Shown in pieces: positions 816-18,315 of a stretch of 64,000 bases of DNA (position 1 is the first letter of the stretch; every line of letters begins with the position of its first letter). Source of the stretch: Candidatus Omnitrophota bacterium (GTDB lineage: Bacteria; Omnitrophota; Gorgyraeia; Zapsychrales; Zapsychraceae); the NCBI GenBank assembly GCA_029261065.1, contig JAJDCB010000006.1:284-64283 (forward strand), given 5' to 3'. A model generated the notes under the pieces. It saw only the letters and a list, made by a program, of their open reading frames with translations, had not been told where the DNA came from and ran no database searches. The position numbers and the translations under genes were made by a program.

Positions 816-837
816 TTTTCATCCTTTCATCTAAAAA

Positions 838-1758: not shown

Positions 1759-1761
1759 ATA

Positions 1762-2121: not shown

Positions 2122-2124
2122 CGT

Positions 2125-3486
2125 TTACTCCAGTCCTAAAATTTGTGTGATCATAAATTTATAGCCACAAATAATCAATATTACAGAAATTAAGGATATC
2201 ACGGCCCCTGCTTTGATCATATCTCGACTTCTTAACATATCTGTTGAAAACGCAATCGCATTGGGTGGTGTTGAGACAGGTAACACCATCGCCAAGGAGC
2301 AGGACATAGCAATTGTAACCGCCAATATAACACTGCTCTCCCCAGGCACAGCAACGGCAACGGGAATTAAAAGAGTTGCTGCAGCTGTGTTACTCATAAA
2401 AGTCGAAAGCACAACAGCTAACACACAGAATATTATAACGAGAATCATCCCCTTTTGCTCAAACAAAGGCAATGAGACAACCAAGTCAGCAAAACCACTT
2501 AATTCCATACCCTTTCCTAAAGCCAACCCACCCCACATCAAGATTAATACATCCCAATTGATTTGTTTAAAATCATCTTTTTTAAGCAGTCCCGTAAAAG
2601 AAAATAATCCTGCCGCTAACAAAGCAACAACAGCTGAAGGTATTTTGTGAAAACTTGATGTTAACCATAACAAAATCGTTAAAAGCGCTATAGCCATAAC
2701 TTGGATAACTTTTGAATTAATCTTTTCTTTGTAAGTAATATTTAAATGCAGTTCTTTAGACGAAGAAGGATAAAAACCATAAAGAATAGCACTTGCCGTA
2801 AAAAGAAGTATACCGGCTAAGGGCAGGGCCATTTTCATCCAAGAGAAAAAATTGATATGAATATTTCGTTCCGCTAGTATTCCTATGGCAATGGCATTGG
2901 GCGGCGTACCAACAGGTGTTGCCATACCACCGATAAGAGCAGAAAAAGGAATCGCTAAGATCAATCCCGTTCTAAAGGGATCTTCTTTATCCATCTGTTT
3001 AAGAAACGGCATAACCATCGCAATCATCATCGCTGTGGTTGCCGTATCAGACATCCACATAGAGAGCGAGGCTGTTGTGATCATAAAGCCAAGCATAATA
3101 AAATAAGGTTTTCGACCAAAAACTTTTAATAACTTTGAAGCCACAAGCCGATCAATGTTGTATTTATTCAGGGCATGCGCCAAGATAAACCCTCCAAAAA
3201 AAAGGATAAGGATAGGATTTCCGAATTGGGATAAGAATACGTCATATCCAATTTGTTCCATACCCTCTAATTTTCCAGGAAGACATAATAAAAAAATCTC
3301 AAGAAGAACAACGAGAATGGATGTCGCATAAAGCGGAATAATTTCAAAGGCCCAAAATAAGGCTGCAATGACAAAAATAAACAAAATACGGCTTACGGGT
3401 TCAGGGAGATGACCGGATGATAAGACATAACATAGGCTGGCGAGCCCTATAGATAAAACGGATTTTACTGTTTGAATTTTAGACAT
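2125..3486 (-). CDS. DASS/SLC13-family (ArsB/NhaD superfamily) anion:Na+ symporter
   Basis: 453 aa and polytopic. Repeated hairpin-tip motifs typical of DASS transporters (TPVGTPPNAIA, VSTPPNAIAF and MSNTAAATLLIP, matching the SNT signature). Confidence 0.6.
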   Translation of the reverse strand: MSKIQTVKSVLSIGLASLCYVLSSGHLPEPVSRILFIFVIAALFWAFEIIPLYATSILVVLLEIFLLCLPGKLEGMEQIGYDVFLSQFGNPILILFFGGFILAHALNKYNIDRLVASKLLKVFGRKPYFIMLGFMITTASLSMWMSDTATTAMMIAMVMPFLKQMDKEDPFRTGLILAIPFSALIGGMATPVGTPPNAIAIGILAERNIHINFFSWMKMALPLAGILLFTASAILYGFYPSSSKELHLNITYKEKINSKVIQVMAIALLTILLWLTSSFHKIPSAVVALLAAGLFSFTGLLKKDDFKQINWDVLILMWGGLALGKGMELSGFADLVVSLPLFEQKGMILVIIFCVLAVVLSTFMSNTAAATLLIPVAVAVPGESSVILAVTIAMSCSLAMVLPVSTPPNAIAFSTDMLRSRDMIKAGAVISLISVILIICGYKFMITQILGLE

Positions 3487-3601
3487 TGTAAATTATCACG
3501 TATCACTTCTTTAATTCCTTACTATTTGACTTCCCCACTATACCATAGACACAAACCTATACTATCATCACCTTTTGAATAAAAATGGCCGCAGAACGAT
3601 G

Positions 3602-3841
3602 CTATTTCTTAAAAAATAAACGCATCTTTTTTGGTTGTTTATTATCATTAGACTCGCGATGGCATATATCATAAAGAACCTTCCGCTCAAGATCATCATG
3701 AATATGCTCATTTAAATCCGCTTCTTGCCAATGCTTGGCATCGCTGATAATGGTATCTGCGACAGCTTTCAAATCCTTGTAATTTTTTTGAGGCAACGAT
3801 TTTTTAAGTATCGACATAATTTCTGCTTCAGAAAAAATCAT
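3602..3841 (-). CDS. hypothetical small protein
   Basis: 79-aa ORF with no recognisable motif, co-oriented with its neighbours. Confidence 0.3.
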   Translation of the reverse strand: MIFSEAEIMSILKKSLPQKNYKDLKAVADTIISDAKHWQEADLNEHIHDDLERKVLYDICHRESNDNKQPKKMRLFFKK

Positions 3842-3863
3842 ACAAATCCCTCCTTTCGGATCA

Positions 3864-4316
3864 TTACTTAATAATCACATGCCGAACATCTCTCACTTGT
3901 AAAAACTCTGCTCGCGTGTATGTCTGCTTTTTTGCAATCCATGGCAATAGTAGGGCAACAATTACAAAACACATAACAGAAATCGTTATAACTTTTCTTT
4001 TAAAGGGTTGGGGACATTGTTTTGTCCCAAAAGTGACGGCTTTTATCCAGTTCCAGTGCAATATTAAATGAACGATTAAAACAATCAAAAAACCAAAGGC
4101 AATCCAGAAATGAATCTCCCCCCATTCATGACGTGTTAGTCCCATAAAGACATCAATTGTTTTTTCAATCCCCCTACCGCTCCCTCTTAACAACATCTCA
4201 ACACGTCCACTCCCCGGAGGTAAAATAAATTTTAATAATAGCCCTGTGGAAATCATCAACATAAAAACCACGAAACTTATCGCATCGATAACAATATTCC
4301 AAACATTTCGTTTCAC
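3864..4316 (-). CDS. integral membrane protein, unknown function
   Basis: 150 aa with about four hydrophobic helices (FVVFMLMISTGLLLKFIL, IAFGFLIVLIVHLILHW, VMCFVIVALLLPW). Confidence 0.45.
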   Translation of the reverse strand: MKRNVWNIVIDAISFVVFMLMISTGLLLKFILPPGSGRVEMLLRGSGRGIEKTIDVFMGLTRHEWGEIHFWIAFGFLIVLIVHLILHWNWIKAVTFGTKQCPQPFKRKVITISVMCFVIVALLLPWIAKKQTYTRAEFLQVRDVRHVIIK

Positions 4317-4328
4317 GGAAGCTCCTTT

Positions 4329-5492
4329 TTAGTCTCTTGTCATCTTTGCTGATATTCCAATCGGCGTTTGATATTTATAAACAACAATGTAACTAGATGC
4401 AATAAAGGTTAAAATTGTAACAAGTTGTATCAATTGTGCGGCTTCCATACTGATATGATTTAATTCAAGCGCTAATATAGCCACCAAGAGTGAGAATTCA
4501 CTTAATTGCCCCAGTCGTATTCCCGTCTCTTTGGCAAAAGAGATCTTTTCTCCAATAAAAACGAAGGCCTGTTTAAAAACCCAAGGTTTCATAAAAATAA
4601 AAATCACGGCAAGGATAACCCCTGGAAAAAGAATATTTTTCATCACCAACAAATCAAACTTTGCTCCCAACGTAAAAAAGAATAAAACTAAGAAAAAATC
4701 TCTTAAGGGTTTTAATTGATCTGAAATAAAACGAGCAATAGGATGTCTCGCAAGAACTACGCCAGCAAAGAAAGCTCCTGTCTCATAAAAAAGACCCATA
4801 CTGTTTGATATCATGGCAAGACCACAACACCAGGCTAGTCCCATAACTAATAAGGCCTCATGAAGCCGTTCAATACTCAACAACACCTTTCTTAAAATAT
4901 AATATTCAACAATAAGAAGAATGCCGATAAAGACGACAAGCTTAAACGATAAAATGGTAAAACTCAATATCGCTCCGTCAGGGGCATTTAGACATCGTAT
5001 AAAAGCAAGCACGGCGATAGCCAACAAATCTTCTAACACTAAAATTCCGATACAGACCTCTCCCATTCTCCTTTGATGCAGATCTGTGGTGGGTAATAAT
5101 TTTACAACTAAAATCGTACTGGAAAACATCAACGCCAGACCAATACAAAGGCTGTCTATGATACTAAAATGGAATGCAAAGGCAAAAAGGGCCGCAATCA
5201 AAAAAGACACGAGGCAATTAACAAAGGCCACCAATGAAACCTTCCTAAATAGTTTGATTAGTTTTTGAGGATGTAAACATAGGCCAGCTAAAAATAAGAG
5301 AAGCGTAATACCAAGATGCGAAATCGTTTCTATAAATTCCACATTTTGAATCCATCCAAGCCCCCATGGTCCAATGAGAATCCCACTAAGAACATAGGCG
5401 ATAATAATAGGCTGTTTAAAAATAATCGCCAGGTACGACAACACAGCTGTTGTTAAAAGAAGAATACTTAAGTCTAAAATAAATCGTTCCAT
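4329..5492 (-). CDS. cation:proton antiporter (CPA2 / Kef-NapA type Na+/H+ exchanger family)
   Basis: 387 aa and polytopic. The N-terminus LLLTTAVLSYLAIIFKQPIIIAYVLSGILIGPWGLG is typical of Na_H_Exchanger (CPA2) proteins. Confidence 0.7.
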   Translation of the reverse strand: MERFILDLSILLLTTAVLSYLAIIFKQPIIIAYVLSGILIGPWGLGWIQNVEFIETISHLGITLLLFLAGLCLHPQKLIKLFRKVSLVAFVNCLVSFLIAALFAFAFHFSIIDSLCIGLALMFSSTILVVKLLPTTDLHQRRMGEVCIGILVLEDLLAIAVLAFIRCLNAPDGAILSFTILSFKLVVFIGILLIVEYYILRKVLLSIERLHEALLVMGLAWCCGLAMISNSMGLFYETGAFFAGVVLARHPIARFISDQLKPLRDFFLVLFFFTLGAKFDLLVMKNILFPGVILAVIFIFMKPWVFKQAFVFIGEKISFAKETGIRLGQLSEFSLLVAILALELNHISMEAAQLIQLVTILTFIASSYIVVYKYQTPIGISAKMTRD

Positions 5493-5509
5493 GTTTTAAA
5501 ATCCCTTAT

Positions 5510-6274
5510 CTAAATGATTCCACTTAACCAAACACCTGCCAAATAAGCAAGAAAGGCGGCACTTCCTCCGATACACAATGTTTCTAATCCTGATATATAC
5601 CAACGATAGTTGATAAAGCGAGCTTTCACGGCTCCGACACAGAAAAATGCAACGCCTGTCATCAACGCACTCACAAAATAGGGATCCACATTTGTTTTTG
5701 GAAACATCCATTGATATACAAAAACCAATAAAGGAATAACACCAACAATCATAAATGCAAAAAAGGTTGATAAGGCAGCCTTCCAGGGGTTAGGCCCCTC
5801 AAGAGCCATCCCAAGCTCTTCTGTCAGCATCGTATCAATCCATGTTTTAGAATCAGAAGTAATAATATTAACAACTTTTTCAAGATCAGCACCTTCAAAA
5901 CCTTTGGAAGCAAAAATTTGCCGGATTTCTTCTCGCTCTCCTTCTGGAATGACCTTGATATGAATCTCTTCTTCTTGTCTGGCCTTCTCGCGCAGCTGTT
6001 CCTCAGCACGTGTTCCTAAAAAGTTACTTGCCGCCATACTAAACCCATCTCCAATTAAATTCGCCATTCCAAGTATAATGATAATATGACTTGATAAACC
6101 AGCCCCCGCCACACCACTCACAACCGCAAACGTTGTAACAGCACCATCAATGGCCCCATAAATAAAATCTTTTAGATAACTATGCTTAACGCCATACTCA
6201 AGCCTTTCTCTTACGGCCAAAGGCGTATGCGACAATTTCAATGATTGTTTAAGATTATGCTTTTTTGATTTCAT
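5510..6274 (-). CDS. VIT1/CCC1-family iron/manganese transporter
   Basis: YGAIDGAVTTFAVVSGVAGAGLS is the VIT-family signature. There is a central coiled/acidic segment and a C-terminal group of three TM helices. Confidence 0.7.
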   Translation of the reverse strand: MKSKKHNLKQSLKLSHTPLAVRERLEYGVKHSYLKDFIYGAIDGAVTTFAVVSGVAGAGLSSHIIIILGMANLIGDGFSMAASNFLGTRAEEQLREKARQEEEIHIKVIPEGEREEIRQIFASKGFEGADLEKVVNIITSDSKTWIDTMLTEELGMALEGPNPWKAALSTFFAFMIVGVIPLLVFVYQWMFPKTNVDPYFVSALMTGVAFFCVGAVKARFINYRWYISGLETLCIGGSAAFLAYLAGVWLSGII

Positions 6275-6547
6275 TTTTATTAGTTTTAATTTTTTATATA
6301 AATCTTATAAATCAAATAAATATATGTGACAAGAAAAATACTTCCATAACAATACCACTCTAAACTTAAAATTGCAGGCCATATCTTTGCGATCAATAAA
6401 GCACAAGCCAATACACAAATTTTAAGAATCCCAACATCCCAAACCGTCATCTTTTTTATTTTTTCTTCAGCCCATTTGAAATAACTCATTTTAGCCCCCC
6501 TTTTTTATACAAACATTATATCTCTCAACTTAGCACCTTTCATGATT

Positions 6548-6748
6548 TTAACCTCTGATGATTTTTCTGACCCTATTTTTCCCTTGCTTTTTAAGATTAA
6601 TAATTTTATCTCGCAAAACAGCTGCCATTTCATAATTTTCCACCTTAACGGCATTGTCTATTTGTTCTTCTAAATCAAAAAGCTGTTCTACCTTTTCTAA
6701 CTCTTGCTTTATCTGAGGATCAAACTTATTCATATCATAAAGTTTCAT
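6548..6748 (-). CDS. UVR-domain small protein
   Basis: The 66-aa ORF ends in a UvrB/UvrC-type UVR motif (YEMAAVLRDKIINLKKQ). Confidence 0.5.
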   Translation of the reverse strand: MKLYDMNKFDPQIKQELEKVEQLFDLEEQIDNAVKVENYEMAAVLRDKIINLKKQGKNRVRKIIRG

Positions 6749-6750
6749 GA

Positions 6751-7059
6751 TTAACCTCCTCTCGCCGTATAGGTTTCAAGACATCTCAAAAATTTGTAAA
6801 CTCGTTTATCTAAAATATAATAATAACGAATATTATTATCTTTATCACACGCCAACACACCAACATTTTTCAAAGCTGTTAGATGTTGGGAAACCGTTGA
6901 TTGCGCCACTTTAAGTTTCCTTTGAATACTTCCAACTGAAAGTCGCTTTTCATTAATTAAAACCATTATAATTCTCAACCTTACTGGATGAGCCATTATT
7001 TTTAGCATCCGTACAGAAAACTCAATATTATGTAACCTTACTTTCCTCATGATTCTCAC
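6751..7059 (-). CDS. ArsR/SmtB-family metalloregulator (HTH)
   Basis: MLKIMAHPVRLRIIMVLINEKRLSVGSIQRKLKVAQSTVSQHLTALKNVGVL is the canonical ArsR wHTH. Confidence 0.8.
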   Translation of the reverse strand: MRIMRKVRLHNIEFSVRMLKIMAHPVRLRIIMVLINEKRLSVGSIQRKLKVAQSTVSQHLTALKNVGVLACDKDNNIRYYYILDKRVYKFLRCLETYTARGG

Positions 7060-7423
7060 GCGCTCCCGTCATGTGACGCGATAAATTTTGATCAAGGTGT
7101 TCTAAAACACCTGTAACATCTTTATCATTTGTCCTACAGACTTTAATCCCAGAGTGAATCAAACTATTGAGCATCTTTCCCTTAATTTCAGGACTAATAA
7201 CAGCATCAATGTGTTGTTGTCGCATGGTTTGACGTGGACTTCCTGCAAGATGATCATGATGATGCCGATGTTTATTCTTAATGGTTCTTAAATAATGCAA
7301 GTTTGTATCATAGATAACAAAATAAGGCACATGGGCAAAGTTAGGCACGACCCTTGCCTCGTAACCCTCATTTGTTTTTGTTGGAATGCAGACTCGCATC
7401 TTAAACCACCTTTGTAATTTCAA
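7028..7423 (-). CDS. NifX/NifB-like dinitrogenase FeMo-cofactor-binding family protein (Nitro_FeMo-Co fold). The likely true start is the internal MRVCIPT near 7399.
   Basis: MRVCIPTKTNEGYEARVVPNFAHVPYFVIYD... matches the N-terminus of NifX/NafY/NifB-C domain proteins. It overlaps the ArsR gene by 32 nt, which suggests an operon. Confidence 0.55.
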   Translation of the reverse strand: MKLQRWFKMRVCIPTKTNEGYEARVVPNFAHVPYFVIYDTNLHYLRTIKNKHRHHHDHLAGSPRQTMRQQHIDAVISPEIKGKMLNSLIHSGIKVCRTNDKDVTGVLEHLDQNLSRHMTGARENHEESKVT

Positions 7424-7524
7424 ATATTAAAATATTCAAATATTACTTATCTCCTACTTTCATTATAAAATAGACCAATGATATGGGTATTCGCTAAAAT
7501 ACATAGAAACGTGCGTAGTTCTAC

Positions 7525-10500
7525 TTAAGAAAGAAGTAAGTCTACAATCAAAGGAAGGTGATCTGAGGCTACTTTATCGAGTTCTGTTTTAGAAACTTCT
7601 GCGTGGACAACGCTAACTTCTCCGCCAATAAAGACATGATCGATACGACCCACGGGATAATGACTAAACCACGTTGCCAAAGGACGATGATTATTTAAAA
7701 CATGTTGGGAGTCATGAAGTTTTTGGGTAATGCACCGGCATACGGGGGAACCTGGTAAGGCATTAAAATCTCCACACAAAATAATTGGACCTTCACAAGC
7801 ATGGTGTTCTAGCCAATCCGGTCCAAGTAACGCCTCAGCCTGCCTTAAACGCTCTAGACGTCGTAACCCAAGGTGCGTATTAATAACCTGTACTCTTATA
7901 TCATCAACGTTGATTGTAGTCCATATCGCCCCACGAGGCTCAAGATCTGGACGTCCAGGTAAAATAGGTAGTCGACCAGCATACATTGTTTTGATAGGAT
8001 ACCGACTAAGAATAGCATTACCATACCGTTCTTCTTCAATGCAAATAGCGGGATGAAAATGATACATCATCTCTAATTGTTTAGCAATAACATGGGGCTG
8101 GTTTATATCGCCTGTACGCGAACGATTCATATCTAATTCCTGCAGGGCAACAATGTCCGGTTCATGCCTGGCAATCACACGAGCAATCCGCTCTGGCGAT
8201 GTTTTTCCATCCATACCTCGACAACTATGAACATTGTAGGTCATGATACGAATCTTTTTCGTTTCTGGACTTATTGAAGAGGATTTCACAGAAAGCATAG
8301 ATTTCTTAGGTTTCATCCTTCCTAAATGTTGCAATGCTAGCTCCCTTAAATCTTTTGTCTTTAAATACGTTTTTTCTTTTGATAACGAAACAATATCTGC
8401 CGGAAGTAAAGTAAACGCATTTGTCTCCTCTGTTCCCACCCCTGCATGAGCTCCATTTTCAATAGGAAAACTTATCGGTGTCTGCCCTGGCCTCCATCCT
8501 GAAAAAGTAAAATCGCCAGCGTCTGGATGATGACAGATAGCAATCAAATCCTGTGTTACGTCGCTAAGATAAGGATGATTCTCTCCTAAAACTTCTTGTG
8601 CCTGCGCGGGTAAAATAAATTCGCCTCTTTCATTGAAAGCCCGCACTTGCCCCTCTTCTTCTGGAAACAAAACAAGAGGAATTTTGGCCTTATGTACAAG
8701 CTGACGAGAAAAAATGCATTTGTCTTCTTGATTTAGTTTCGTTGGCAGATAAATATTTCCCGTCGGCCCAATGGCCGTTACTGTAAGTTTATTCTGAGCA
8801 GCATGCTTTTGAGGAGAAAAAAGTTTTTGTAGATATGGACTTCCCAAATAACTTGCTCGATGAAATTGCACTCCTCGTCTTGTGGCTTGTTCTTGAAAAC
8901 ATTTATCCAGATCATCATCCAAACGTCCAGGTTCTGTTTTTTTGTTGGAATGCTTAAAAGCACTATAAACCTCTGTAACCGCCTCATGAACCCTTCTTCC
9001 ATATTCAACGGTGTAAGACAAGGTGTCTTCTTGACCATGGTCGGAATATATCCAAACATCGTAACTTCTTCGCGTAGAACTCATGGCATTTTTGTAAATA
9101 TCACCAATCGCTAAATCAATTCCTTTAAGAGCCCAATGAGCAAATTTTGTGGATGGTCCTCGACGATGGGCCTGTTCATCGAAGCCTAATAGATTTAAAT
9201 GAATAATAGGCAGACCTCTTGCAACATCAATCTTAACGCCAAGGGTTATCAGTTCTCGCAATAAAATACAAATCACAGCACGGGTGGGGACAAATTTAAA
9301 TTCTTTGATAAAGTTTTCTCCTTGAAACAATCCACCCAGAAAGTCAGCAAACCCTAAAACCAATTCCAAAATGATTAATAAGATAATACGTATCAAAGCC
9401 AAAAAATGGGTGAGGGCTAACACGATTAATTTAAAGACATTAACATCTTTCCATATCCGACTTAAACCCAATGAGACAGCACAAAAATGAGCTTCTTTGG
9501 CTCCCCCCTCATAAATATTCGAATAAGAACTCCCCCCCTCTAATAATCCTGTTTCCTGCTCTTTCAAACGTTGTTCAATTTTTTGGGCATCATCGCCATC
9601 AAACATCGTAAAAACTTTATTCTCGCTCTTGTCAAAATAAGAAAAAGCCGGAACAATTTGTTTAACACCATAAAATAATTCTCCTTGAACCGCAGGTGTA
9701 CTCGAAGGTAAACCTGTGTATAAAGGATAACTGTTATAATGTTGATTATTTAATAAACCTTTTAAAAAAGGCATTTCATTATTTTTAATAGCTTTTTGTA
9801 ATTGATGTCTCGAAAACCCATCAATTTGAATAAGAACCAAACCAGCCTTTGTCTCCTCCTCTTTGGAATGTGACAAATTAAGAAGACGCGCCGACCATTC
9901 GTGTTTATTGCACCATCGATTCCATTTTAAGATCCAATGCCTTTTTTTATCCTTTCTCGTCTTTTTAACATTAAAGGCCCTTTCACTAAAAGCGGCTTCA
10001 GAAGCATTTGTCAAATTTTTTGCCATATTCCATTCCGTCTTTATCCGAGACATACTGATTTTCCAAAGACTATTATGAATGTCTCGAGAGACAACGTTTC
10101 TGGACTTAACCTCATTGTAAAGGTTTATAACTTGCCCCGCGCAATGAACATTAGAATAATTCTGTGCTGATTGTCTCGCCGCCCTTTTTATCTTTTCCAT
10201 TTCAGAATGTGATTTGTGATAACACCAAGATAACGCTGATACAAATGTTTCTTGATGTTGTTCATGAATCAAACGGCCATTGAGACCGTCACGCAGGATA
10301 TCTCTGACACCTTGCGCATCAAGGGCAACGACAGGAACAGATGATGCCATAGCTTCTAAAAGAACAACGCCTTGCGTCTCACTCAACGAAGCAAAGGCAA
10401 AAACATTCATCGCATGATAACTATCCACTAATTGTTGATCTCTTAAAACGCCTGTAAAATGCAATCGATTTAAATCATCTTCCTTTAAAAAAACCTGCTT

Positions 10501-11241
10501 AATAACTTCTTGTGAAGGACCCTTACCCACAACAAGAAAATGAGCATCTTTTTTTTCTTTTAAAAACTGGGCGACGCATTGCGCGAGAAATTCTAAATTT
10601 TTCTCCGACGCCAAACGACCAACATGCCCCACAACAAAGGCCTCTTGAGGGATACCAAACTCTTCTCTTGTCTTTAAAACATCTGCATTTGCAAACTTAT
10701 TAGTATCAACTCCTGTTGGGATAACCTCTGTGGGCGTTTCAACACCTCGCGATTGTAAAATATCTTTAACACTACGCGTAGGAACGATAACCTGATCGGC
10801 AAGATTGGCATAGCCAGTAGAAAGCTCGATAACAAAACGTTTTATAAGATCATTATGAAAGGGAAGATAATGAATGTATTGTTCATACATCGTATGGTAC
10901 GTAAAAATGAGAGGAATGTTATATTGACCACTGAGACGAAGGGCTATATCACCTAATAAAAAGGGATGATGGCTGTGGACTATATCTGGTTTAAAATCGT
11001 GCATTAACTTTTCTAATAAACCTGGAATCGGAAGATTAATAGAAAAATCGGTATGATTACATTTTTGAATAGCTGGAATTCGAATAACGTCTTTTTCATC
11101 TCTCATCATCCCTTCAAAAGTAGGGGCGACAATAATCACTTGATGACCTTGTATCCTCAATTGAGAAGAAAAGGAACGAATAGATTCCTCTACTCCCCCG
11201 ACAATCGGCGTAAACGTATTTGTCATCATAAGAATTTTCAT
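7525..11241 (-). CDS. 1238-aa multidomain protein: N-terminal GT4 glycosyltransferase, central NPP-type (type I phosphodiesterase / nucleotide pyrophosphatase, alkaline-phosphatase superfamily) domain with a hydrophobic insertion, and C-terminal endonuclease/exonuclease/phosphatase (EEP) domain
   Basis: Residues 1-~400 are a GT4/GT-B glycosyltransferase (MKILMMTNTFTPIVGGVEESIRSF...). Residues ~460-900 carry LVLIQIDGFSRHQL, MPFLKGL, SSTPAV, HLNLLGFDEQAH and YSDHGQ, which match the PF01663 LVISLDGFR, MPNL, T-nucleophile and DHG motifs. A ~35-residue hydrophobic stretch (LIVLALTHFLALIRIILLIILELVLGF) sits in the middle. Residues ~960-1238 carry the EEP motifs (IMTYNVHSCRG, DIVALQELD, CGDFNALP, RIDHVF). 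Confidence 0.65.
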   Translation of the reverse strand: MKILMMTNTFTPIVGGVEESIRSFSSQLRIQGHQVIIVAPTFEGMMRDEKDVIRIPAIQKCNHTDFSINLPIPGLLEKLMHDFKPDIVHSHHPFLLGDIALRLSGQYNIPLIFTYHTMYEQYIHYLPFHNDLIKRFVIELSTGYANLADQVIVPTRSVKDILQSRGVETPTEVIPTGVDTNKFANADVLKTREEFGIPQEAFVVGHVGRLASEKNLEFLAQCVAQFLKEKKDAHFLVVGKGPSQEVIKQVFLKEDDLNRLHFTGVLRDQQLVDSYHAMNVFAFASLSETQGVVLLEAMASSVPVVALDAQGVRDILRDGLNGRLIHEQHQETFVSALSWCYHKSHSEMEKIKRAARQSAQNYSNVHCAGQVINLYNEVKSRNVVSRDIHNSLWKISMSRIKTEWNMAKNLTNASEAAFSERAFNVKKTRKDKKRHWILKWNRWCNKHEWSARLLNLSHSKEEETKAGLVLIQIDGFSRHQLQKAIKNNEMPFLKGLLNNQHYNSYPLYTGLPSSTPAVQGELFYGVKQIVPAFSYFDKSENKVFTMFDGDDAQKIEQRLKEQETGLLEGGSSYSNIYEGGAKEAHFCAVSLGLSRIWKDVNVFKLIVLALTHFLALIRIILLIILELVLGFADFLGGLFQGENFIKEFKFVPTRAVICILLRELITLGVKIDVARGLPIIHLNLLGFDEQAHRRGPSTKFAHWALKGIDLAIGDIYKNAMSSTRRSYDVWIYSDHGQEDTLSYTVEYGRRVHEAVTEVYSAFKHSNKKTEPGRLDDDLDKCFQEQATRRGVQFHRASYLGSPYLQKLFSPQKHAAQNKLTVTAIGPTGNIYLPTKLNQEDKCIFSRQLVHKAKIPLVLFPEEEGQVRAFNERGEFILPAQAQEVLGENHPYLSDVTQDLIAICHHPDAGDFTFSGWRPGQTPISFPIENGAHAGVGTEETNAFTLLPADIVSLSKEKTYLKTKDLRELALQHLGRMKPKKSMLSVKSSSISPETKKIRIMTYNVHSCRGMDGKTSPERIARVIARHEPDIVALQELDMNRSRTGDINQPHVIAKQLEMMYHFHPAICIEEERYGNAILSRYPIKTMYAGRLPILPGRPDLEPRGAIWTTINVDDIRVQVINTHLGLRRLERLRQAEALLGPDWLEHHACEGPIILCGDFNALPGSPVCRCITQKLHDSQHVLNNHRPLATWFSHYPVGRIDHVFIGGEVSVVHAEVSKTELDKVASDHLPLIVDLLLS

Positions 11242-11252
11242 CGGAACATTCC

Positions 11253-13604
11253 TTATTTGCCTTCTAGGCTTAAATACACCTCGTCGTCTCCTGCTTTTGG
11301 TATAACTTTTTTAAATCCCGGGAGTCGAATTTCAATAGATGGTGCCTCTTTAAACCACTGGCCCTTCCAACTCACTTTGATCTTATCTTCAAGAGGGATG
11401 ATAGAAATATCGATCACACCGTAAACCGTCGTGGCTGGCCCAAAGGACATCTTTTTTTTCTTATCTATCCATTCCTTTGCAACCCCAGAACACAAAATTA
11501 ATTTTTTGTCTTTTTCTTCTTCACGCACAAAACAATTTCTGATCATTAACACCCATTCCGATGCCGCCCATACATGTTGACCATCCCCCATACAACCACC
11601 CTTTGTATGAGGATGAATAGCCTCGGGCCATTGACCTGTAGGAGACGCTAATCGCGCCACAGTCTTCATTAAATCAAAACATCTGACATCCCCGTTTCTT
11701 AATAAGACTTGAGCAATATGCAAAGTTAAATAAGGATTTATCCCTGAATGAGTCATATCTTGAAAAAATCCACCATCAACAAAACAGTGCTCCATCAAAA
11801 AATGAACTGTATTTTTCACACGAATATCATGAGCAGGCCAAAGCATCAAAGGATAATCAACAGCAACAGATCCAATGGCGCCGGCATCCATCCTGCGATA
11901 AGGGGATGCAGGAATAATCGAACTCTTTAAACGTTTTTGAACCTTATCAAGACTCGCCTCAATGCTCGTCATAAAATCTTTAGATTCTTGATAAAAATGT
12001 TGGGCACGTTTTTCACTCCAGAACTCCTCGATTAAATGAGCCACAGCGTTTAAACCTGCCACACCCCAAAAATCATCCCAATAATAATAATCATTAGGTC
12101 CTAAATGTTCTGCACTAAATCCAGGAGGAAACAATCCTTTGTGAGATGACGTCGATTTGCCTTTAAGTCGTTTATGCATAATCCAACGACCTCCCAAATC
12201 TATAGACCTTCTCCAATCTTGAGGCAATGGTTCTCCCGTCATCTGACAATATTTCTCAATAATCCATAACGCCTCCCCATTGGAGTCCCACTCTCCATCT
12301 TGCGAAAGAAAGTATCCTCCTGACGTTTGTTTAGAAGAAAAACCATCCATCACTCGTCTGACACGTGATTTTAATCCTAAACACAACATCGCATGTAAAA
12401 TAAAGGCAGCATCACGAAACCAAAAACGTTTATAAGTATATGGTCCTGGATAAACCTCATTAGGTGAATGTAAAATAAGTGTTCTTACCGCTGCGTCAAA
12501 AATAAATTGAAAGCGATCATCCGGAATCTCTAGTTGACAAACGCCTTCTAAACTTTCCTTCCATCTTTCAACGGATGTTTGTTGAACAACTTGCCCTTCC
12601 TTTAACACACTATGATCTGCCTCATGAAATGCCCGTGCTAAAGCTGACTCATAAAGCAAATCTTTAAAAGTTGATTTCTTTTGCTTTTGAGATTTAAAAA
12701 GAGGAATCTCAACAACAACCTCTTGGCTTTGATGGGCTAATAGTTTAAATTGCGCGGCTGCTGTGGCTAATCCTATGTTGCATGTCATACGCCTATCTTT
12801 GTCTGAACAAGGCAGGCGATGAAAAACATCTCCTTTGCGATAATAAGAAAAAGCATGTTGATCGAAAACACGGTCAAGATGAACCACCTGACTATTGTTC
12901 ACCTTCCATCCCTTATCATTGTCTAACAAATCAATATCATGAATAAAACTCACCCCTTCAGGATTATATGGTCTTAGGGCCACAACCAAAAAGGAGTCTG
13001 ATAATGATGATGACCCTTTTAATTCTATGCGACAAAGGGGTGCCTCAAGCGTTCCTTTAACGAAGACCTTCGAAATAAGACATCGATCATTATCTGCCGC
13101 TTCTGTGGTTATACACAAACCTTCATCAAAGCTTAACGTTTGAGAAACAATAGGTAATCGAGAAGGAATAAGATGCTTTCCTGATTTATCAATGATCCAA
13201 CTATCAAGAGACCACCCATCAAAAAAAGGTGTCACAAGACCTCGAGGATCAACAATGGGAAACTCCTCGCAATCTGGAATGCCAACAGCTGTCCAATTGC
13301 GTTGTGTCAAATTAATATGCGTGATAGAAAAAGCGCGCGGCACAAAAGATTGATGATGAGGATCAAATTGACATTCCACCCAATAAGGCCAAACCCAATC
13401 AAGGTTATGTTGAATAGCCTGACTATTCATAAGTCCACGCGCATGTAACACGACGCCTGATCTTAATAATTGAACAGGGGCGGCAACCTCCGCGGGTTGA
13501 GCAAAACGTTCCAGTTTAGAAAAGATGTCAATCGGATCCAAAAAACCTCTTTTGCGAGCCGTACTTCTGACAATCATTCTCCAAGGTAACCATTTAAGCC
13601 ACAT
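11253..13604 (-). CDS. six-hairpin (alpha/alpha)6 glycoside hydrolase-like protein (GH15 glucoamylase/trehalase-like or GDE-like)
   Basis: At 783 aa, YKRFWFRDAAF resembles GH15 conserved region 1 (YTWTRDSGL). It starts 12 nt after the upstream fusion gene and overlaps the downstream membrane gene by 1 nt. Confidence 0.5.
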   Translation of the reverse strand: MWLKWLPWRMIVRSTARKRGFLDPIDIFSKLERFAQPAEVAAPVQLLRSGVVLHARGLMNSQAIQHNLDWVWPYWVECQFDPHHQSFVPRAFSITHINLTQRNWTAVGIPDCEEFPIVDPRGLVTPFFDGWSLDSWIIDKSGKHLIPSRLPIVSQTLSFDEGLCITTEAADNDRCLISKVFVKGTLEAPLCRIELKGSSSLSDSFLVVALRPYNPEGVSFIHDIDLLDNDKGWKVNNSQVVHLDRVFDQHAFSYYRKGDVFHRLPCSDKDRRMTCNIGLATAAAQFKLLAHQSQEVVVEIPLFKSQKQKKSTFKDLLYESALARAFHEADHSVLKEGQVVQQTSVERWKESLEGVCQLEIPDDRFQFIFDAAVRTLILHSPNEVYPGPYTYKRFWFRDAAFILHAMLCLGLKSRVRRVMDGFSSKQTSGGYFLSQDGEWDSNGEALWIIEKYCQMTGEPLPQDWRRSIDLGGRWIMHKRLKGKSTSSHKGLFPPGFSAEHLGPNDYYYWDDFWGVAGLNAVAHLIEEFWSEKRAQHFYQESKDFMTSIEASLDKVQKRLKSSIIPASPYRRMDAGAIGSVAVDYPLMLWPAHDIRVKNTVHFLMEHCFVDGGFFQDMTHSGINPYLTLHIAQVLLRNGDVRCFDLMKTVARLASPTGQWPEAIHPHTKGGCMGDGQHVWAASEWVLMIRNCFVREEEKDKKLILCSGVAKEWIDKKKKMSFGPATTVYGVIDISIIPLEDKIKVSWKGQWFKEAPSIEIRLPGFKKVIPKAGDDEVYLSLEGK

Positions 13605-14320
13605 TATTGCTCCTTTCTTTGTATTAAGCGAAATAGATAATAAAAGATCATAAAAACAAACAACACAATAATTAAAATCATCGGAGAACTAGGATTATAG
13701 GCTAAAACGCTTTCATGAAAATGTGTCAAAAGAATCGCCCAAAGGCCGATGGCTGTATAAGTAGCACCCAAAACGATGGTCATATTCAACCATGACCTTA
13801 ATCCCATGAGCCATCCCATAACAGAACCAACAACCGGTCCCGTCCCCCATAAAGGGAACAACACAAAAAGAAATAAGCCAGGCTTACCATACCGTCGAAT
13901 AGTCACAAGATTGGATTCAGCCCTTTTCATCGTTCGTTCCATAACGTTCATGACAGACTGCACAACTTTAAGGTATCGATGACTTAAAACAAAAAGAGGA
14001 TATAATATAAATACTACAATCGTATCGATTAATATATTAATGAAAAAATTACATACATGCCCAAGACCCAAAACATAACCAAAATACACGCCTGCTGGCC
14101 GCCCAACAACAAGGCGCATCCCCGTTAAAGAAACAACTTTCTGATAAATTTCGGGAAACCATAACCAACCTAAAACCAAATAACTAAGAAACAAAACAAA
14201 CAACGCAACACCTGTAAGAAATATACGTCCTTCCGGCGTTCTAATAAGCATCATCCAGACATATGTTTCTTCTATGGCGGTTGGTTCACTTGCAACAGCA
14301 TTATCATTTTTACTTTTCAT
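13604..14320 (-). CDS. polytopic membrane protein, unknown function
   Basis: 238 aa with about 6 TM helices. Translationally coupled to the GH15-like gene by a 1-nt overlap. Confidence 0.45.
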   Translation of the reverse strand: MKSKNDNAVASEPTAIEETYVWMMLIRTPEGRIFLTGVALFVLFLSYLVLGWLWFPEIYQKVVSLTGMRLVVGRPAGVYFGYVLGLGHVCNFFINILIDTIVVFILYPLFVLSHRYLKVVQSVMNVMERTMKRAESNLVTIRRYGKPGLFLFVLFPLWGTGPVVGSVMGWLMGLRSWLNMTIVLGATYTAIGLWAILLTHFHESVLAYNPSSPMILIIVLFVFMIFYYLFRLIQRKEQ

Positions 14321-14332
14321 GTTGTTTCTTTC

Positions 14333-15544
14333 TTAAGGAATTATGTCTGAACAGTCTCCAGAGGCTTCTCCATTATTAAAAAATATTATTTCTTTACCTT
14401 CATGTTTAAAAATAAAACTATCGCTTACATCTTTAATCAAAAACTTATAATCTTTCCAATTTGCTTTAGGCTCAACGGAAAACCTGATCATGTGTAATTT
14501 TAAATGATCCAATAGATAAAAGTCAGAAAGCCTTTTATTGAGATTATCCTTCGCATATCCTTTTACTTTAATGGTCTCACGATTACAATACGTTATCCGC
14601 TCAATCGCAAAACCTTTCGCATAACGATCCATCTCTTCTATCGCCTTACGACTTAATTGATGCATAAAACCTATTGTTTGATCTGTTTCTTCTACAGTAA
14701 AAACCACTCTTGGGTGTATGGATATCGTCACTTTAAGAAAATTTTCCTTTCGCTCCAATTTCCAATAAGGTTCACACAAAAATTCCACGCCTAAAAGCTC
14801 GCTTTGACATCTGGATTTTAAAACATTCCTTTGTTTATGTTCACCAAAAGGCGCGTCCAATTTTCTTTCAAGCACTTGCAAAAAAAGCTCTCGTTCGTCA
14901 TCATAATTATTAACTCTTACAATATTCCCCTTATCATAAATAATCTCTCGTTTGACATAACCATTAGGATGATATTCTCTGTATTCACCATCTCTTAAAC
15001 CATCCTTATAACTAAATTCTTCCCATATTGTTCCATCTTCATAATACGTTTCTGCAACCCCCTGTTCGTGCCCTTCATCATAATTAGCACTAGCTGCCAA
15101 ATTGCCATTTTCATAATAAACATTATGCACACCCACTTCCTTCCCATCTTCATAAAGGCCTTCCGCCTCCAAAGCGCCACTGTTGTAATACAATTTGTAA
15201 ATGCCATCGCGTTTATTATTCTTATATTCAAATTTAAGACGAAGAATACCGTCTTCACAATAATCCTGATAGAGACCTTCACGTTGCCCAGACTTGTAAA
15301 ACACCTCCATCTTCAATTGACCATTCTCATAATATTCTCTGTAGACACCATCATCATCGTCATCAAAACAATTTGTTTCAGACAGAAGCTCTCCGCTTTC
15401 ATAATATTCACGTCTATAACCATTCTCCTCAGTAACCTGCCCAACGCCCGATCCAAAAAATATTTCCGATATTTTTGGTTGTGCAAAAACATGGCTTGCT
15501 AATATCAGAGAAAAGGCCAAGCCGATATACAATATTTTTTTCAT
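14333..15544 (-). CDS. secreted MORN-variant-repeat (YwqK-like, PF07661-type) protein with an uncharacterised ~190-aa C-terminal domain
   Basis: Signal peptide MKKILYIGLAFSLILASHVFA. Repeated YxEYYENGQLK / YKLYYNSGAL / ETYYEDGTI units fill residues ~40-215. Confidence 0.6.
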   Translation of the reverse strand: MKKILYIGLAFSLILASHVFAQPKISEIFFGSGVGQVTEENGYRREYYESGELLSETNCFDDDDDGVYREYYENGQLKMEVFYKSGQREGLYQDYCEDGILRLKFEYKNNKRDGIYKLYYNSGALEAEGLYEDGKEVGVHNVYYENGNLAASANYDEGHEQGVAETYYEDGTIWEEFSYKDGLRDGEYREYHPNGYVKREIIYDKGNIVRVNNYDDERELFLQVLERKLDAPFGEHKQRNVLKSRCQSELLGVEFLCEPYWKLERKENFLKVTISIHPRVVFTVEETDQTIGFMHQLSRKAIEEMDRYAKGFAIERITYCNRETIKVKGYAKDNLNKRLSDFYLLDHLKLHMIRFSVEPKANWKDYKFLIKDVSDSFIFKHEGKEIIFFNNGEASGDCSDIIP

Positions 15545-15721
15545 ATCTCACCTCCTCACGAAAAGTATTTCGAAACGTCTCCTTTCCCGTTATTAGTTTA
15601 GGAAGAATTGACAAATTAGGATATGAGATAACATACGGAAGGGATTAAGTAGAATTACTTAGGCTGATAAGGAGAGAGATTACCGCAAATAGTTGCCGTT
15701 TTAAGCTCTTAAAATTAAGAA

Positions 15722-16345
15722 TTATTTTAAAGGATACTTGCCTGCGGAGTTATTGGCAATTTTCTTTAAGGAGAATTCGGCATAACCAGCCAGAATTTCT
15801 TGAGTTTGGCGGGGTGGTGGGACAACAAAATATTGGGAAATAAGGGCGTGTGCCACTTCATGCGCGAGTACACCTAGAGTGACATTATCTAAGGAAAGGT
15901 AAATGGTATTATTCTCATGATAAAAGAACCCAATTTCATCATTATAAAAGAAAGCCTTCTCACCTTCATTAACGCCAAAGATACCTTTTAATTCCTTATC
16001 AAGATCTTTCTGTGTATCAAAAATCTTGATATTTGTATGAAAATCACTTATTTGAAGCCCTAATATCTGTGTGAGATTCTTGACAATTTCATCCATGCCT
16101 TCCGTTAAGATGACCTTAGGATCAGAGGATTGGCCACTCGCATAACTATCTGACAAATTAGCAACCTGAAAATCACGTAGAATCTGGTTTAAATCAACAT
16201 CATTTTGGCTATGGATGGAAAAGGAAAAATGCTGGCTCTCAAGCACGTTTGACTCTTTTTCAGCCAAACTTAAGGTGGGAAAAAAGCTTAGAAACATTAC
16301 GCTTATCGCCAGAAATTTAAATAATTTTAAGGACTTCAATGACAT
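15722..16345 (-). CDS. secreted putative zinc metallopeptidase-like protein (HExxH)
   Basis: Signal peptide followed by LGVLAHEVAHALISQY (HExxH) near the C-terminus. Confidence 0.4.
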   Translation of the reverse strand: MSLKSLKLFKFLAISVMFLSFFPTLSLAEKESNVLESQHFSFSIHSQNDVDLNQILRDFQVANLSDSYASGQSSDPKVILTEGMDEIVKNLTQILGLQISDFHTNIKIFDTQKDLDKELKGIFGVNEGEKAFFYNDEIGFFYHENNTIYLSLDNVTLGVLAHEVAHALISQYFVVPPPRQTQEILAGYAEFSLKKIANNSAGKYPLK

Positions 16346-16531
16346 AAATTTGTCTCTCTAAGTTCATCTTAGCGTATCTTATCCTACTCCAAGTATAAAC
16401 TGCAAATACATACTCAACAAGGGCTTGCAAGAAAGCGCTTTCATAATAAACGTCAAAATGACAATGAGCAAGCACATTTGACGATTCTTATTTATATGAG
16501 TTATTAGGGGAAAAATCGATTAAAATGATAT

Positions 16532-16578
16532 AAAAAAACCCTAACGGCTATATTACCAAAACCATTAGGGTTTTTTTA
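16532..16578 (-). terminator. rho-independent terminator-like hairpin after tpsB
   Basis: Stem AAAAAAACCCTAA / TTAGGGTTTTTTT with a ~21-nt loop. On the minus-strand reading it is followed by a 7-T run, and it lies 20-60 nt past the tpsB stop. Confidence 0.4.
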
Positions 16579-16599
16579 ACGTGATGGTTACTCTGTTTT

Positions 16600-18315
16600 T
16601 TAGAACTTTAGCTGAAATTCAAACCAAACATGAGCCCGATCTCCATCTTCTGACTTTTTACCTTGTGGAAATCCAGCTTCCACACGTAAGGCCAAATCAT
16701 CTTTGATGTTCACGCGCACACCAGCTCCATAACCTTTTAATGTCTCAGACTTTTCTTCTCCAGCAAGAGGTGTGTTGGTACCTGCATAACCAAAATCGTA
16801 AAAGATAACCCATTTTAAAACGTCATACAATTTTTCTTCTCGAAAGGGAACTTTTACGTCTCTTGATAAACCATAAAAGGGAAAAGACCATTCAAACGCA
16901 GTATAATATCCTTTATCTCCAGAATGTTCTGCAGGAGCATATGCTCGAACACTTGTAGGACCACCGATTTGAAATTGTTCGGAGGCGACAAGGTTATGAT
17001 TAGAAACCTGTGCAGAATTTTTCCAAAGAATATAGGATTCATATGGCATGGGATGTAAACGAAAGAAATGAAATCCCCATTTTTGAAATTTACCTCCAGC
17101 CCCTGCTCTTGAAGCTAAAGGATCTTTCGCATCCATGGAACCAAGAAAATCTGGAATCCCAACACCTAATTCGGTGGTGAAGATATTTCGTCCAAAGCGA
17201 TCATTAAAATCAAGATCTCCACCAAATTTGATAACCCTTAATTCATCATGAGATGTCTCAAGGCCTAGCAGATGATTCTTAATATCCTTGTAATCAAAAC
17301 CGGCATTAAGTCTTAACTCTAGATCATCCCGATAGATGACTTCTTTATTAATAAAAATTCCAGCTAAAAAAGCGTCACCATGGGCATCAAGGGCTTCAAA
17401 TTCTTTGACGAGATCTGTTTCCACATTCAATACGTAAAATCCCACATCAAATGTCTTGTTGACAGGAAACACATATCGTCCTTGGTAAAGTTCAAGGAGC
17501 GCACCTTCTGAATATTGTCCCTTTAGATACAAACGGTCATCGAACCCAAGCAAATTATTGTGTTCAAGAGTCCATGCAAAACGATCATTCTTAAGGAAAC
17601 GGGAAGCGTAATTATCGTATTCAAAACCCACATGAAAAGGAAATTGATCTTTAACATCTAAAACGAGATCTGTGGTTCCAGGTTCTTTTCCTGGGACAAG
17701 GACAATTCTAGCAGTTCGATCTGGATGTTCATTAATATAAACCAAGGATCTTTGCAGCGCAGAATAATCAAAGTATCCATAGGGTTTAAGATCGATATAT
17801 TCTCTAAACAGTGACGTTTTAAAATACTTGTTCCCCTCTACTGTTAAACTTCCTAATTTTCCTTCAATCACTTTAATGATCAAACGACCATTTTGAAGAG
17901 ATTGAGGTGGCACATAGGCGCGGGATGTTACATACCCTTGCGTTCTATATTCAGCTGTAATCTCATCGGCAATGGCCTGAATCTTTGTCATGGACAACTT
18001 TTGACCTTCATACGTCATGATCAGATTTTTTATGACATCATCTGAAAGGAGCGTTACATTCTCTACAACTATTTCATTGATCAGAACATTTGGACCAGCC
18101 TCCAACTCGGCCTCTTCAACAACTTCTTCTGTTTCTTTTAATTCCTGTTTTTTTAAACGTTGTTCAAACTCCTTAACTTTTTCCTGTTCTACTTTACGTT
18201 GCAGTGCACCACCAGCGGTTTCTGATGATGTGGGTTGTGCATAAACGATGTGATGGACTATAAAGAGAGAAAGTACAACACCTATCACTACAACAAACCC
18301 ATTTTTTCGTTTCAT
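16600..18315 (-). CDS. TpsB: ShlB/FhaC/HecB-family two-partner-secretion outer-membrane transporter (Omp85 superfamily)
   Basis: Signal peptide, POTRA-like region, and a beta-barrel ending in the terminal aromatic FEFQLKF. A strong SD (AAGGAGG) sits 7 nt upstream. Directly downstream of tpsA. Confidence 0.75.
   Translation of the reverse strand: MKRKNGFVVVIGVVLSLFIVHHIVYAQPTSSETAGGALQRKVEQEKVKEFEQRLKKQELKETEEVVEEAELEAGPNVLINEIVVENVTLLSDDVIKNLIMTYEGQKLSMTKIQAIADEITAEYRTQGYVTSRAYVPPQSLQNGRLIIKVIEGKLGSLTVEGNKYFKTSLFREYIDLKPYGYFDYSALQRSLVYINEHPDRTARIVLVPGKEPGTTDLVLDVKDQFPFHVGFEYDNYASRFLKNDRFAWTLEHNNLLGFDDRLYLKGQYSEGALLELYQGRYVFPVNKTFDVGFYVLNVETDLVKEFEALDAHGDAFLAGIFINKEVIYRDDLELRLNAGFDYKDIKNHLLGLETSHDELRVIKFGGDLDFNDRFGRNIFTTELGVGIPDFLGSMDAKDPLASRAGAGGKFQKWGFHFFRLHPMPYESYILWKNSAQVSNHNLVASEQFQIGGPTSVRAYAPAEHSGDKGYYTAFEWSFPFYGLSRDVKVPFREEKLYDVLKWVIFYDFGYAGTNTPLAGEEKSETLKGYGAGVRVNIKDDLALRVEAGFPQGKKSEDGDRAHVWFEFQLKF

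Follow-up and report, generated by a model that had tools for sequence, protein, structure and literature searches.

A glycosyltransferase fused to two phosphoesterase modules in an Omnitrophota genome, and the conserved four-gene cassette to which it belongs

How does a single polypeptide come to carry a glycosyltransferase together with two different phosphoesterases, and what might such a protein act on? These questions are raised by an open reading frame (ORF) of 1238 amino acids (aa) in the genome of a Candidatus Omnitrophota bacterium (assembly GCA_029261065.1, contig JAJDCB010000006.1, positions 284 to 64,283), a stretch of 64,000 nucleotides that is referred to below as the window. The ORF extends over positions 7525..11241 on the minus strand, with an ATG start and including the stop codon. 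An original prediction from the sequence suggested that its product is a membrane-associated machine that both builds and cleaves a glycosyl-phospho linkage. Our results indicate that the ORF almost certainly encodes a genuine fused enzyme which belongs to a conserved cassette, and the informative unit, missed by that prediction, is this four-gene cassette. We consider the chances slightly better than even that it acts on a membrane lipid.

The fused protein

Pfam supports each of the domains originally read from the sequence, and their order, with all matches to the families concerned above their cut-offs. The N-terminus consists of a retaining GT4 glycosyltransferase domain of the GT-B type (aa 1-380; 10102..11241), followed by a linker (aa 381-459; 9865..10101) and by an NPP-type module of the alkaline-phosphatase superfamily (aa 460-985; 8287..9864) into which a predicted hydrophobic and amphipathic helical hairpin is inserted (aa 599-675; 9217..9447). 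The C-terminus is formed by an endonuclease/exonuclease/phosphatase (EEP) domain (aa 996-1238; 7528..8256). All of these elements lie on the minus strand, and the catalytic residue sets of all three domains are complete and invariant in homologues.

The glycosyltransferase domain matches Glyco_transf_4 (PF13439; aa 14-181, 3.8e-37, 128.4 bits, cut-off 28.5) and Glycos_transf_1 (PF00534; aa 190-357, 3.2e-29, 102.1 bits, cut-off 26.4), and both its EX7E motif (E288-x7-E296) and its phosphate-binding GRLASEK motif (aa 208-214, G208-R209...K214) are nearly invariant among 41 sequences. The EEP domain matches Exo_endo_phos (PF03372; aa 1000-1228, 1.2e-26, 94.3 bits, cut-off 24.5) and its catalytic set, comprising N1003, E1035, N1121, H1123, D1158, N1160, D1201, D1227 and H1228, is invariant in 41 sequences.

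For the middle module, the match to Phosphodiest (PF01663; 2e-08, 34.7 bits, cut-off 23) is best over aa 685-744, and only about 60 residues of the 342-position model align well. The assignment also draws on residues D474, T515, D688, H692, D734, H735 and H932, which constitute a complete NPP/alkaline-phosphatase binuclear metal site with a Thr nucleophile and which are invariant in an alignment of 32 sequences from many phyla. The Thr nucleophile and the DHG metal motif, both noticed originally, correspond to T515 in GLPSSTPAVQ and to D734-H735-G736 in YSDHGQ. The family profile reaches PDB sequences solely via the DExxH...SDHG core of the Xanthomonas NPP. In a fold comparison the modelled structure was closer to the NPP type than to other branches of the superfamily, with PafA (22.0), phosphonoacetate hydrolase (21.8) and sulfatases (18.6 or less) all falling below the NPPs; these rankings fix the NPP branch and identify no substrate. 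No NCBIfam model covers the module, and the sulfatase family PF00884 has no match in the 1238-aa protein.

Structure prediction was in agreement with the domain assignments. AlphaFold2, applied to aa 440-1238 together with an alignment of 41 sequences, yielded a confident model (predicted local distance difference test, pLDDT, 87; predicted template modelling score, pTM, 0.89) in which one alpha/beta NPP-like domain, with two long inserted helices at aa 613-639 and 644-675 (model positions 174-200 and 205-236), is followed by the EEP domain. These helices form the hairpin, the sole strongly hydrophobic element of the protein; hydropathy analysis locates its main hydrophobic stretch at aa 599-640 (Kyte-Doolittle 19-residue maximum 2.75) and a weaker one at aa 655-674, and 29 of 31 homologues carry a hydrophobic stretch at the equivalent position. 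The hydrophobic segment of the original prediction is therefore present and conserved, although it cannot span the membrane because metal ligands flank it within a single domain. A true transmembrane helix at aa 599-640 was accordingly rejected; it would split one metal site across the membrane, and AlphaFold places the hairpin within one confident domain. On the basis of the model, the hairpin is probably a monotopic or interfacial (re-entrant) membrane anchor, or a lid, and membrane association as such is supported. The protein has no signal peptide and no N-terminal transmembrane helix by hydropathy, and the NPP module shows no feature of an outward-facing secreted or ecto-enzyme, being internal and positioned behind a cytoplasmic-type GT4 without an N-terminal hydrophobic segment.

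The integrity of the ORF was examined from its composition and from its homologues. At the local guanine-plus-cytosine content of about 38%, about 0.066 stops are expected per codon and, by our own arithmetic, the chance of 1238 open codons is about e^-85, so that the ORF, which has no internal stops, is not a product of chance. Among 5.8 billion proteins searched with the whole protein, 258 relatives were recovered, and over 100 are full-length (1200-1290 aa, 43-63% identity) and carry the identical Pfam set; those that are named derive from Omnitrophota, Pirellulales, Thermoguttaceae or Planctomycetota, with the Omnitrophota sequences nearest to the window protein. An identical protein (P0001) is present in public data, encoded by a contig of 129.8 kb. 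It is extremely improbable that an assembly or frameshift error joined two or three separate genes. Although GT4 and NPP·EEP are separate genes in most other lineages, and split genes are seen in a few loci (L008, L031, L033 and L064), the more than 100 homologues were assembled independently in different studies and align end to end, the linker is conserved, fused forms occur in two clades, and the reading frame stays open in an AT-rich genome. A frameshift-fused pseudo-ORF was thus excluded in practice, given the many independent full-length homologues with the same Pfam set, and the original claim that the ORF is no artefact holds.

A conserved four-gene cassette and the origin of the fusion

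Comparison of the loci encoding these proteins, by ORF calling and comparison with the window proteins, revealed a conserved gene order: a small membrane protein, a protein of 750-790 aa that we denote U783, a GT4 of about 428 aa and an NPP·EEP protein of about 800 aa. A scan of one genome per GTDB species located 80 loci, and the cassette statistics are based on 82 non-redundant loci. GT4 is fused to NPP·EEP in 9 of these and constitutes a separate, adjacent gene in 63, while U783 occurs within 6 kb in 63 of the 82, with upstream DNA too short to judge in 13. Where the genes are unfused, a 4-nt overlap between the stop of GT4 and the start of NPP·EEP is typical, as in L012 (9947/9944), L013 (9968/9965), L022 and L052, so that one lost stop codon suffices for fusion. 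In the cultured Desulfuromonas sp. AOP6 (L085; AP022810.1, where the NPP·EEP gene is AOP6_1493), the genes for a VTT protein, U783, GT4 and NPP·EEP are tightly packed, overlapping or at most 3 nt apart. The linker of the window protein, delimited by BLASTP comparison of fused with unfused loci, is equivalent to the end of the stand-alone GT4, its C-terminal tail, joined to the N-terminus of the stand-alone NPP·EEP. The fusion derives from two adjacent, translationally coupled genes, GT4 and NPP·EEP, and the singular machine originally envisaged gives way to a recurrent fusion of two cassette genes of which the first is usually separate.

When the middle module alone was used in an exhaustive HMMER search, 1526 representative clusters were recovered, 481 of them at E<1e-30. 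Four length classes are prominent: proteins of about 800 aa with NPP and EEP are the most frequent, and the others have about 540 aa (only NPP), about 970-990 aa (GT4 and NPP) and about 1230 aa (all three). Starting from the NPP·EEP protein of Saccharospirillum, a further search recovered at least 2496 relatives, every one of which is named just "endonuclease/exonuclease/phosphatase family protein". Loci were located by the genome scan in, among others, Omnitrophota, Planctomycetota, Desulfobacterota, Nitrospirota, Nitrospinota, Sumerlaeota, Verrucomicrobiota, Lentisphaeria, Hydrogenedentota, Riflebacteria, Eisenbacteria and two metagenome-assembled genomes (MAGs) labelled Halobacteria, and in Gamma- and Alphaproteobacteria, including cultured Microbulbifer, Rheinheimera and Saccharospirillum together with Methylobacter genome bins. 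In a neighbour-joining tree of the NPP modules the fused proteins fall into at least two clades, one with the window protein and other Omnitrophota-like sequences and a second with Thermoguttaceae and Blastopirellula. The wider search for the three-domain order that the original prediction proposed thus found it in many genomes, and no characterised enzyme of this combination emerged: homologues bear generic names, and a literature search found no paper describing the cassette, the domain combination or any member, nor any curated name. The cassette as such is uncharacterised; its fused form is confined to particular lineages and is no equivalog of any curated family.

Two observations concern individual MAGs. 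The two 'Halobacteria archaeon' MAGs (L026 and L030) carry a bacterial-type VTT-U783-GT4-NPP·EEP cassette whose NPP module falls together with the one from Methylobacter in the neighbour-joining tree, and which reflects either mis-binning or inter-domain transfer. In the MAGs L008, L031, L033 and L064, GT4 or U783 is split into two or three ORFs, probably as a result of frameshift errors or pseudogene formation, and apparent 'separate' states in MAGs need care.

In the window, U783 (783 aa; 11253..13604, minus strand) is encoded 11 nt upstream of the fusion ORF. Its family comprises more than 4360 homologues, with a mean column identity of 63% among 31 members, and it has no sequence match in Pfam, NCBIfam or PDB; at a threshold as lenient as E<=5, none of the 31 members matches PF00723 or another glycoside hydrolase family of Pfam. 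Its predicted fold is an N-terminal beta-sandwich followed by an (alpha/alpha)6 barrel, as in bacterial GH15 enzymes, and the invariant acids E438, D440, E499, E661 and E683 are candidate catalytic residues. At the N-terminus, members of the family have either a conserved amphipathic segment or a fused GtrA domain (PF04138), the latter in about one third of the homologues among the matches listed.

The first cassette gene of the window encodes a 238-aa membrane protein (13604..14320, minus strand) that is polytopic by hydropathy and is assigned to Sm_multidrug_ex by Pfam (PF06695, 4e-16). It overlaps the U783 start by 1 nt and has a homologue at the same position in L010. In other lineages this slot is taken by VTT/DedA or GtrA proteins: a VTT/DedA-type protein (PF09335) comes first in 30 loci, and other Omnitrophota have GtrA as the membrane protein, encoded separately or fused to the U783 N-terminus.

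Possible substrates and chemistry

The reading that we favour, tentatively and at somewhat less than an even chance, is phospholipase C (PLC)-type cleavage of a lipid by the NPP and EEP domains at the cytoplasmic face, followed by alpha-glycosylation of the lipid by the GT4. At the cytoplasmic face of the inner membrane the two esterases, resembling phospholipases C or sphingomyelinases, would strip the phospho-head group from a membrane phospholipid, leaving diacylglycerol or a related lipid alcohol, and one of them might also release phosphate from the freed phospho-alcohol. The GT4 would then move an alpha-linked hexose from a nucleotide sugar to the lipid alcohol to yield a phosphorus-free glycolipid, with the fusion channelling the lipid intermediate between domains. 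U783 would trim or remove the alpha-glycosyl head group, allowing reversal or editing, and the small membrane protein would move the lipid between the leaflets of the bilayer. Nothing points to formation and cleavage of one and the same glycosyl-phospho bond, as first proposed; the evidence fits cleavage of a lipid phosphodiester and then glycosylation of the lipid.

One argument for a lipid lies in the glycosyltransferase, since the cassette GT4s score highest against models with glycerolipid acceptors. The best NCBIfam match of the window GT4 is monoglucosyldiacylglycerol (MGlcDAG) synthase (NF049988; 163.8 bits, full length), and all five stand-alone cassette GT4s tested likewise score highest, over their full length, against this model (128-145 bits). 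GlcNAc-phosphatidylglycerol (GlcNAc-PG) synthase (NF053787) is second in five of the six proteins and third in L052; both families use glycerolipid acceptors, and the pointer is therefore to a glycerolipid. The window GT4 is not an MGlcDAG synthase equivalog, its 163.8 bits comparing with a curated cut-off of 400.

The same domain bears on a soluble alternative, in which a small phosphorylated acceptor receives a sugar from the GT4, the phosphate is removed from the product by NPP and/or EEP, and the GH15-like protein degrades the solute after stress, in a cycle of compatible solutes or storage glycosides. Sucrose-phosphate and GlcNAc-inositol-phosphate synthesis are examples of GT4 action on phosphorylated small acceptors, and the GH15 fold family includes trehalases and glucoamylases. 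We regard such a cycle as unlikely. The PDB sequence nearest to the GT4 is MshA, an inositol-phosphate glycosyltransferase, U783 has a GH15-like predicted fold, many carriers are saline, marine or halophile-named (Saccharospirillum salsuginis, Microbulbifer, Thiohalobacter, Thiohalophilus and a saline biofilm MAG), and HSP20, BON-domain and Bax1-I stress genes lie near some loci. However, it leaves the hairpin, the obligatory membrane protein, the GtrA-U783 fusions and the PlsC-type acyltransferases described below unexplained, the top NCBIfam matches are lipid-acceptor GT4s, and known solute pathways employ HAD-type or histidine phosphatases, of which one is needed.

A second argument for lipid remodelling is that PLC-type enzymes are found near both esterase folds: in the structural comparisons of the models, PLC-type lipid phosphodiesterases are among the near structural neighbours of the NPP and EEP folds alike. 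A further match of the EEP domain is to PF23226, which represents the C-terminus of PGAP2IP/CWH43 (43.6 bits, cut-off 27); it overlaps the generic PF03372 match and spans just half of the PF23226 model. This match can be read in favour of phosphoglycolipid synthesis, in which the GT4 makes a glycosyl-lipid and the NPP-like module transfers phosphoglycerol, phosphoethanolamine or phosphocholine from a phospholipid to the sugar, by a mechanism like that of LtaS, EptA, OpgB and PIG-N, whereupon the EEP domain trims or remodels the product to a glycosylphosphatidylinositol (GPI)-like or glycerophospho-glycolipid. Thr-nucleophile chemistry of the alkaline-phosphatase superfamily is shared with those transferases, PGAP2IP/CWH43 acts in GPI remodelling, PIG-A and PimA belong to GT4 with PimA among the nearest PDB sequences, and the gene context includes membrane and flippase-type proteins. 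The known transferases, on the other hand, have a multi-span N-terminal membrane domain and face the periplasm or lumen, neither of which applies to the fusion, and the PF23226 match has the two limits given above. A full GPI-like pathway, with analogues of PIG-A, PIG-N and PGAP2IP, was rejected for its mismatch in orientation and architecture and is retained only within this alternative, which comes nearest to the phosphoglycolipid idea of the original prediction and which we consider fairly unlikely. The other products suggested there, a teichoic-acid-like polymer and a sugar-phosphate osmolyte, are less likely than a membrane glycerolipid.

Many structural neighbours of the EEP domain are nucleases or nucleotide phosphatases and the Xanthomonas NPP is the nearest PDB sequence relative of the NPP module, so a role in degrading nucleotides, nucleotide sugars or signalling nucleotides, either in conflict and defence or in relieving inhibition by UDP (uridine diphosphate), was also weighed. 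It is further favoured by a weak match to PF20706, 'GT4-conflict' (24.7 bits, under the cut-off of 26). Against it, PADLOC gave no match for any of the four cassette proteins, the core gene order is kept across loci with no obvious mobile-element context, and the membrane components and the GH15-like partner are unexplained. A nucleotide-directed function is very improbable, and its defence-system form was dropped for want of PADLOC matches.

The remaining arguments for the lipid reading concern membrane contact and gene context. A conserved hydrophobic hairpin lies inside the cytoplasmic catalytic domain, and the first cassette gene always encodes a small polytopic membrane protein of a translocator-type family; VTT/DedA and GtrA are families that we take to include, or that are annotated as, translocators of lipids or lipid-linked sugars. 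Moreover, PlsC-type acyltransferases occur within or after the cassette in three loci. A protein with an acyl-carrier (PP-binding) domain and a PlsC-type acyltransferase is encoded between U783 and the fusion gene in L006 (7200-8666) and directly after the cassette in L020 (12367-15222) and L030 (901-aa ORF), and its long form also has an AMP-binding domain. Lipid genes accompany two further loci. Within about 5.5 kb upstream of the L085 cassette (351-5548) lie genes for a CDP-alcohol phosphatidyltransferase, a 630-aa FAD_binding_4 protein and an NAD_binding_4/epimerase protein, a set reminiscent of ether-lipid synthesis genes. In L001, an 8.8-Mb planctomycete genome, the fusion gene occurs alone, without U783, between two HSP20 arrays and near DegP-like and DnaJ-domain genes, and is adjoined by a pair encoding a cardiolipin synthase and a stand-alone EEP, reminiscent of E. 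coli ybhP-clsB (L001 coordinates 4072-5562, 14229-15402 and 16618-19128). HSP20 genes flank the NPP·EEP or fusion gene in only five loci.

The GtrA and DedA/VTT families also include known or proposed flippases of undecaprenyl-phosphate (Und-P)-sugars and of Und-P, and the presence of such proteins at the head of the cassette would accord with a polyprenyl-phosphate-linked glycan, where the cassette builds, edits or salvages an undecaprenyl-(di)phosphate-linked sugar, the esterases release or recycle the carrier and VTT or GtrA performs the flipping. Several GT4s use acceptors linked to undecaprenyl diphosphate, and the corresponding models TuaC and WcaI score 40-100 bits; these lie below the glycerolipid models in all six proteins tested, however, and no recurring initiating phosphoglycosyltransferase, Wzx/Wzy, ABC exporter or polysaccharide genes were found in the 82 loci. 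This possibility is distinctly unlikely.

Several points weigh against cleavage and glycosylation of a glycerolipid. The GT4 scores of 128-164 bits lie far below the equivalog cut-offs of 400 (MGlcDAG) and 480 (GlcNAc-PG), and the nearest PDB sequences, MshA and PimA, make a soluble or inositol-type acceptor conceivable. The hairpin contains invariant charged residues (E626, E647, R654, R662 and D672), and may serve as a lid or in interactions instead of as a membrane anchor. A glycosidase-like protein in the same operon as a transferase is odd, and the acyltransferase and lipid-gene neighbours are confined to a few loci. In a scan for Pho box, sigma-32 and sigma-54 sites, no Pho box or common promoter motif was found upstream of 46 cassettes; the Pho-box matches were weak, with 3-4 mismatches, and the consensus may not apply outside Proteobacteria.

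Relation to known systems and neighbouring genes

The closest parallel is the PlcP-Agt system, in which a metallophosphoesterase phospholipase C and a GT4, encoded by adjacent genes in SAR11, Agrobacterium, Sinorhizobium, Methylosinus and Desulfovibrio alaskensis, remodel lipids under phosphate limitation (PMC9239053; PMC5193443). In that system, as is proposed by analogy for the cassette, phospholipid is cut to diacylglycerol and then glycosylated by the GT4, and the genes are adjacent in both. They differ in that the cassette esterases are of the NPP and EEP types, with no Metallophos match in the fusion, and that the two are fused to each other and, in the window, also to the GT4; the cassette moreover comprises two further proteins, one GH15-like and the other a flippase-like membrane protein, and no Pho-box signal was found upstream of the 46 cassettes scanned.

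Each component can be similarly compared with characterised families. The alMGS/Mgs (NF049988) and GlcNAc-PG synthase families are the best-scoring curated GT4 families, matched over their full length with the EX7E motif kept, and differ in the low scores relative to their cut-offs. Sequence similarity to NPP/ENPP enzymes (the Xanthomonas NPP; human NPP7, an alkaline sphingomyelinase; NPP6 and NPP4) is limited to the DExxH...SDHG core and, unlike these, the window module has a hydrophobic hairpin insert of about 75 residues, no signal peptide, a predicted cytoplasmic location and an EEP fusion. Within the EEP superfamily, which includes uncharacterised bacterial proteins such as 4ruw, TDP2, neutral sphingomyelinases and E. 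coli YafD and YbhP-type proteins, the window domain is distinguished by its permanent fusion to an NPP module, and its nearest solved relatives have no assigned function. In contrast to LtaS, EptA, OpgB and PIG-N, the fusion has neither PF00884 nor a multi-span membrane domain, the hairpin being its sole hydrophobic element. U783 resembles GH15 glucoamylases, glucodextranases and trehalases in predicted fold and lacks a PF00723 sequence match. By analogy, the cassette is best placed with lipid head-group remodelling by a phosphodiesterase and a GT4, with a real chance of undescribed chemistry.

As a natural Rosetta stone, the fusion is evidence for a common pathway of the transferase and the esterases. 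Should the lipid reading be correct, thousands of bacteria from more than ten phyla, including cultured Microbulbifer, Rheinheimera, Saccharospirillum and Desulfuromonas, would carry an unannotated route for exchanging phosphate for sugar head groups, with a bearing on phosphorus economy, membrane stress adaptation and environmental glycolipid biomarkers. It would also give a function to three large families: NPP·EEP (at least 2496 members), the GH15-like proteins (more than 4360) and the cassette GT4s. The broadest formulation is a new and widespread bacterial pathway for the direct interconversion of membrane phospholipids and glycolipids or phosphoglycolipids, which would employ two PLC-like enzymes of folds new to this role in bacteria and the first cytoplasmic bacterial glycolipid glycosidase, with the Omnitrophota/Planctomycetota fusion as a single-polypeptide machine for head-group swapping; this is doubtful, if still a serious possibility.

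Directly upstream of the cassette in the window, at a distance of 12 nt, lies a gene for a 403-aa protein with MORN_2 repeats (PF07661) and a signal-peptide-like N-terminus (14333..15544, minus strand). Homologues directly upstream of the cassette occur only in the Omnitrophota-type loci L002 (5778-6968), L003 and L010 (4301-4963); the gene is possibly co-transcribed with the cassette and its membership is uncertain. A scan of window positions 7000-16700 for promoters and terminators found sites no more frequently than in shuffled sequence. Downstream of the fusion (3864-7423, minus strand) are genes for a NifX/NifB-like Nitro_FeMo-Co protein, an ArsR-type regulator, a VIT1 iron transporter, a Na+/H+ exchanger and a DUF4405 protein, and in other loci homologues of these ion and metal genes do not adjoin the cassette.

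Further away, positions 25234-27346 (minus strand) encode a histidine kinase of the PAS-PAS-HisKA_3 type; a 214-aa ORF overlaps the 3' end of its gene and is possibly the response regulator of the kinase. Kinases of this class occur near the cassette in 24 fetched loci; they are common proteins and a link is unproven. A 710-aa MMPL-family protein (an RND-like exporter of lipids or other compounds) and a 722-aa ORF without a Pfam match follow at 27788-32174 (plus strand). Positions 16600-21484 (minus strand) carry a two-partner secretion (TPS) pair, consisting of a ShlB/FhaC-type transporter (571 aa, POTRA and ShlB) and a 1024-aa exoprotein carrying a TPS domain at its N-terminus.

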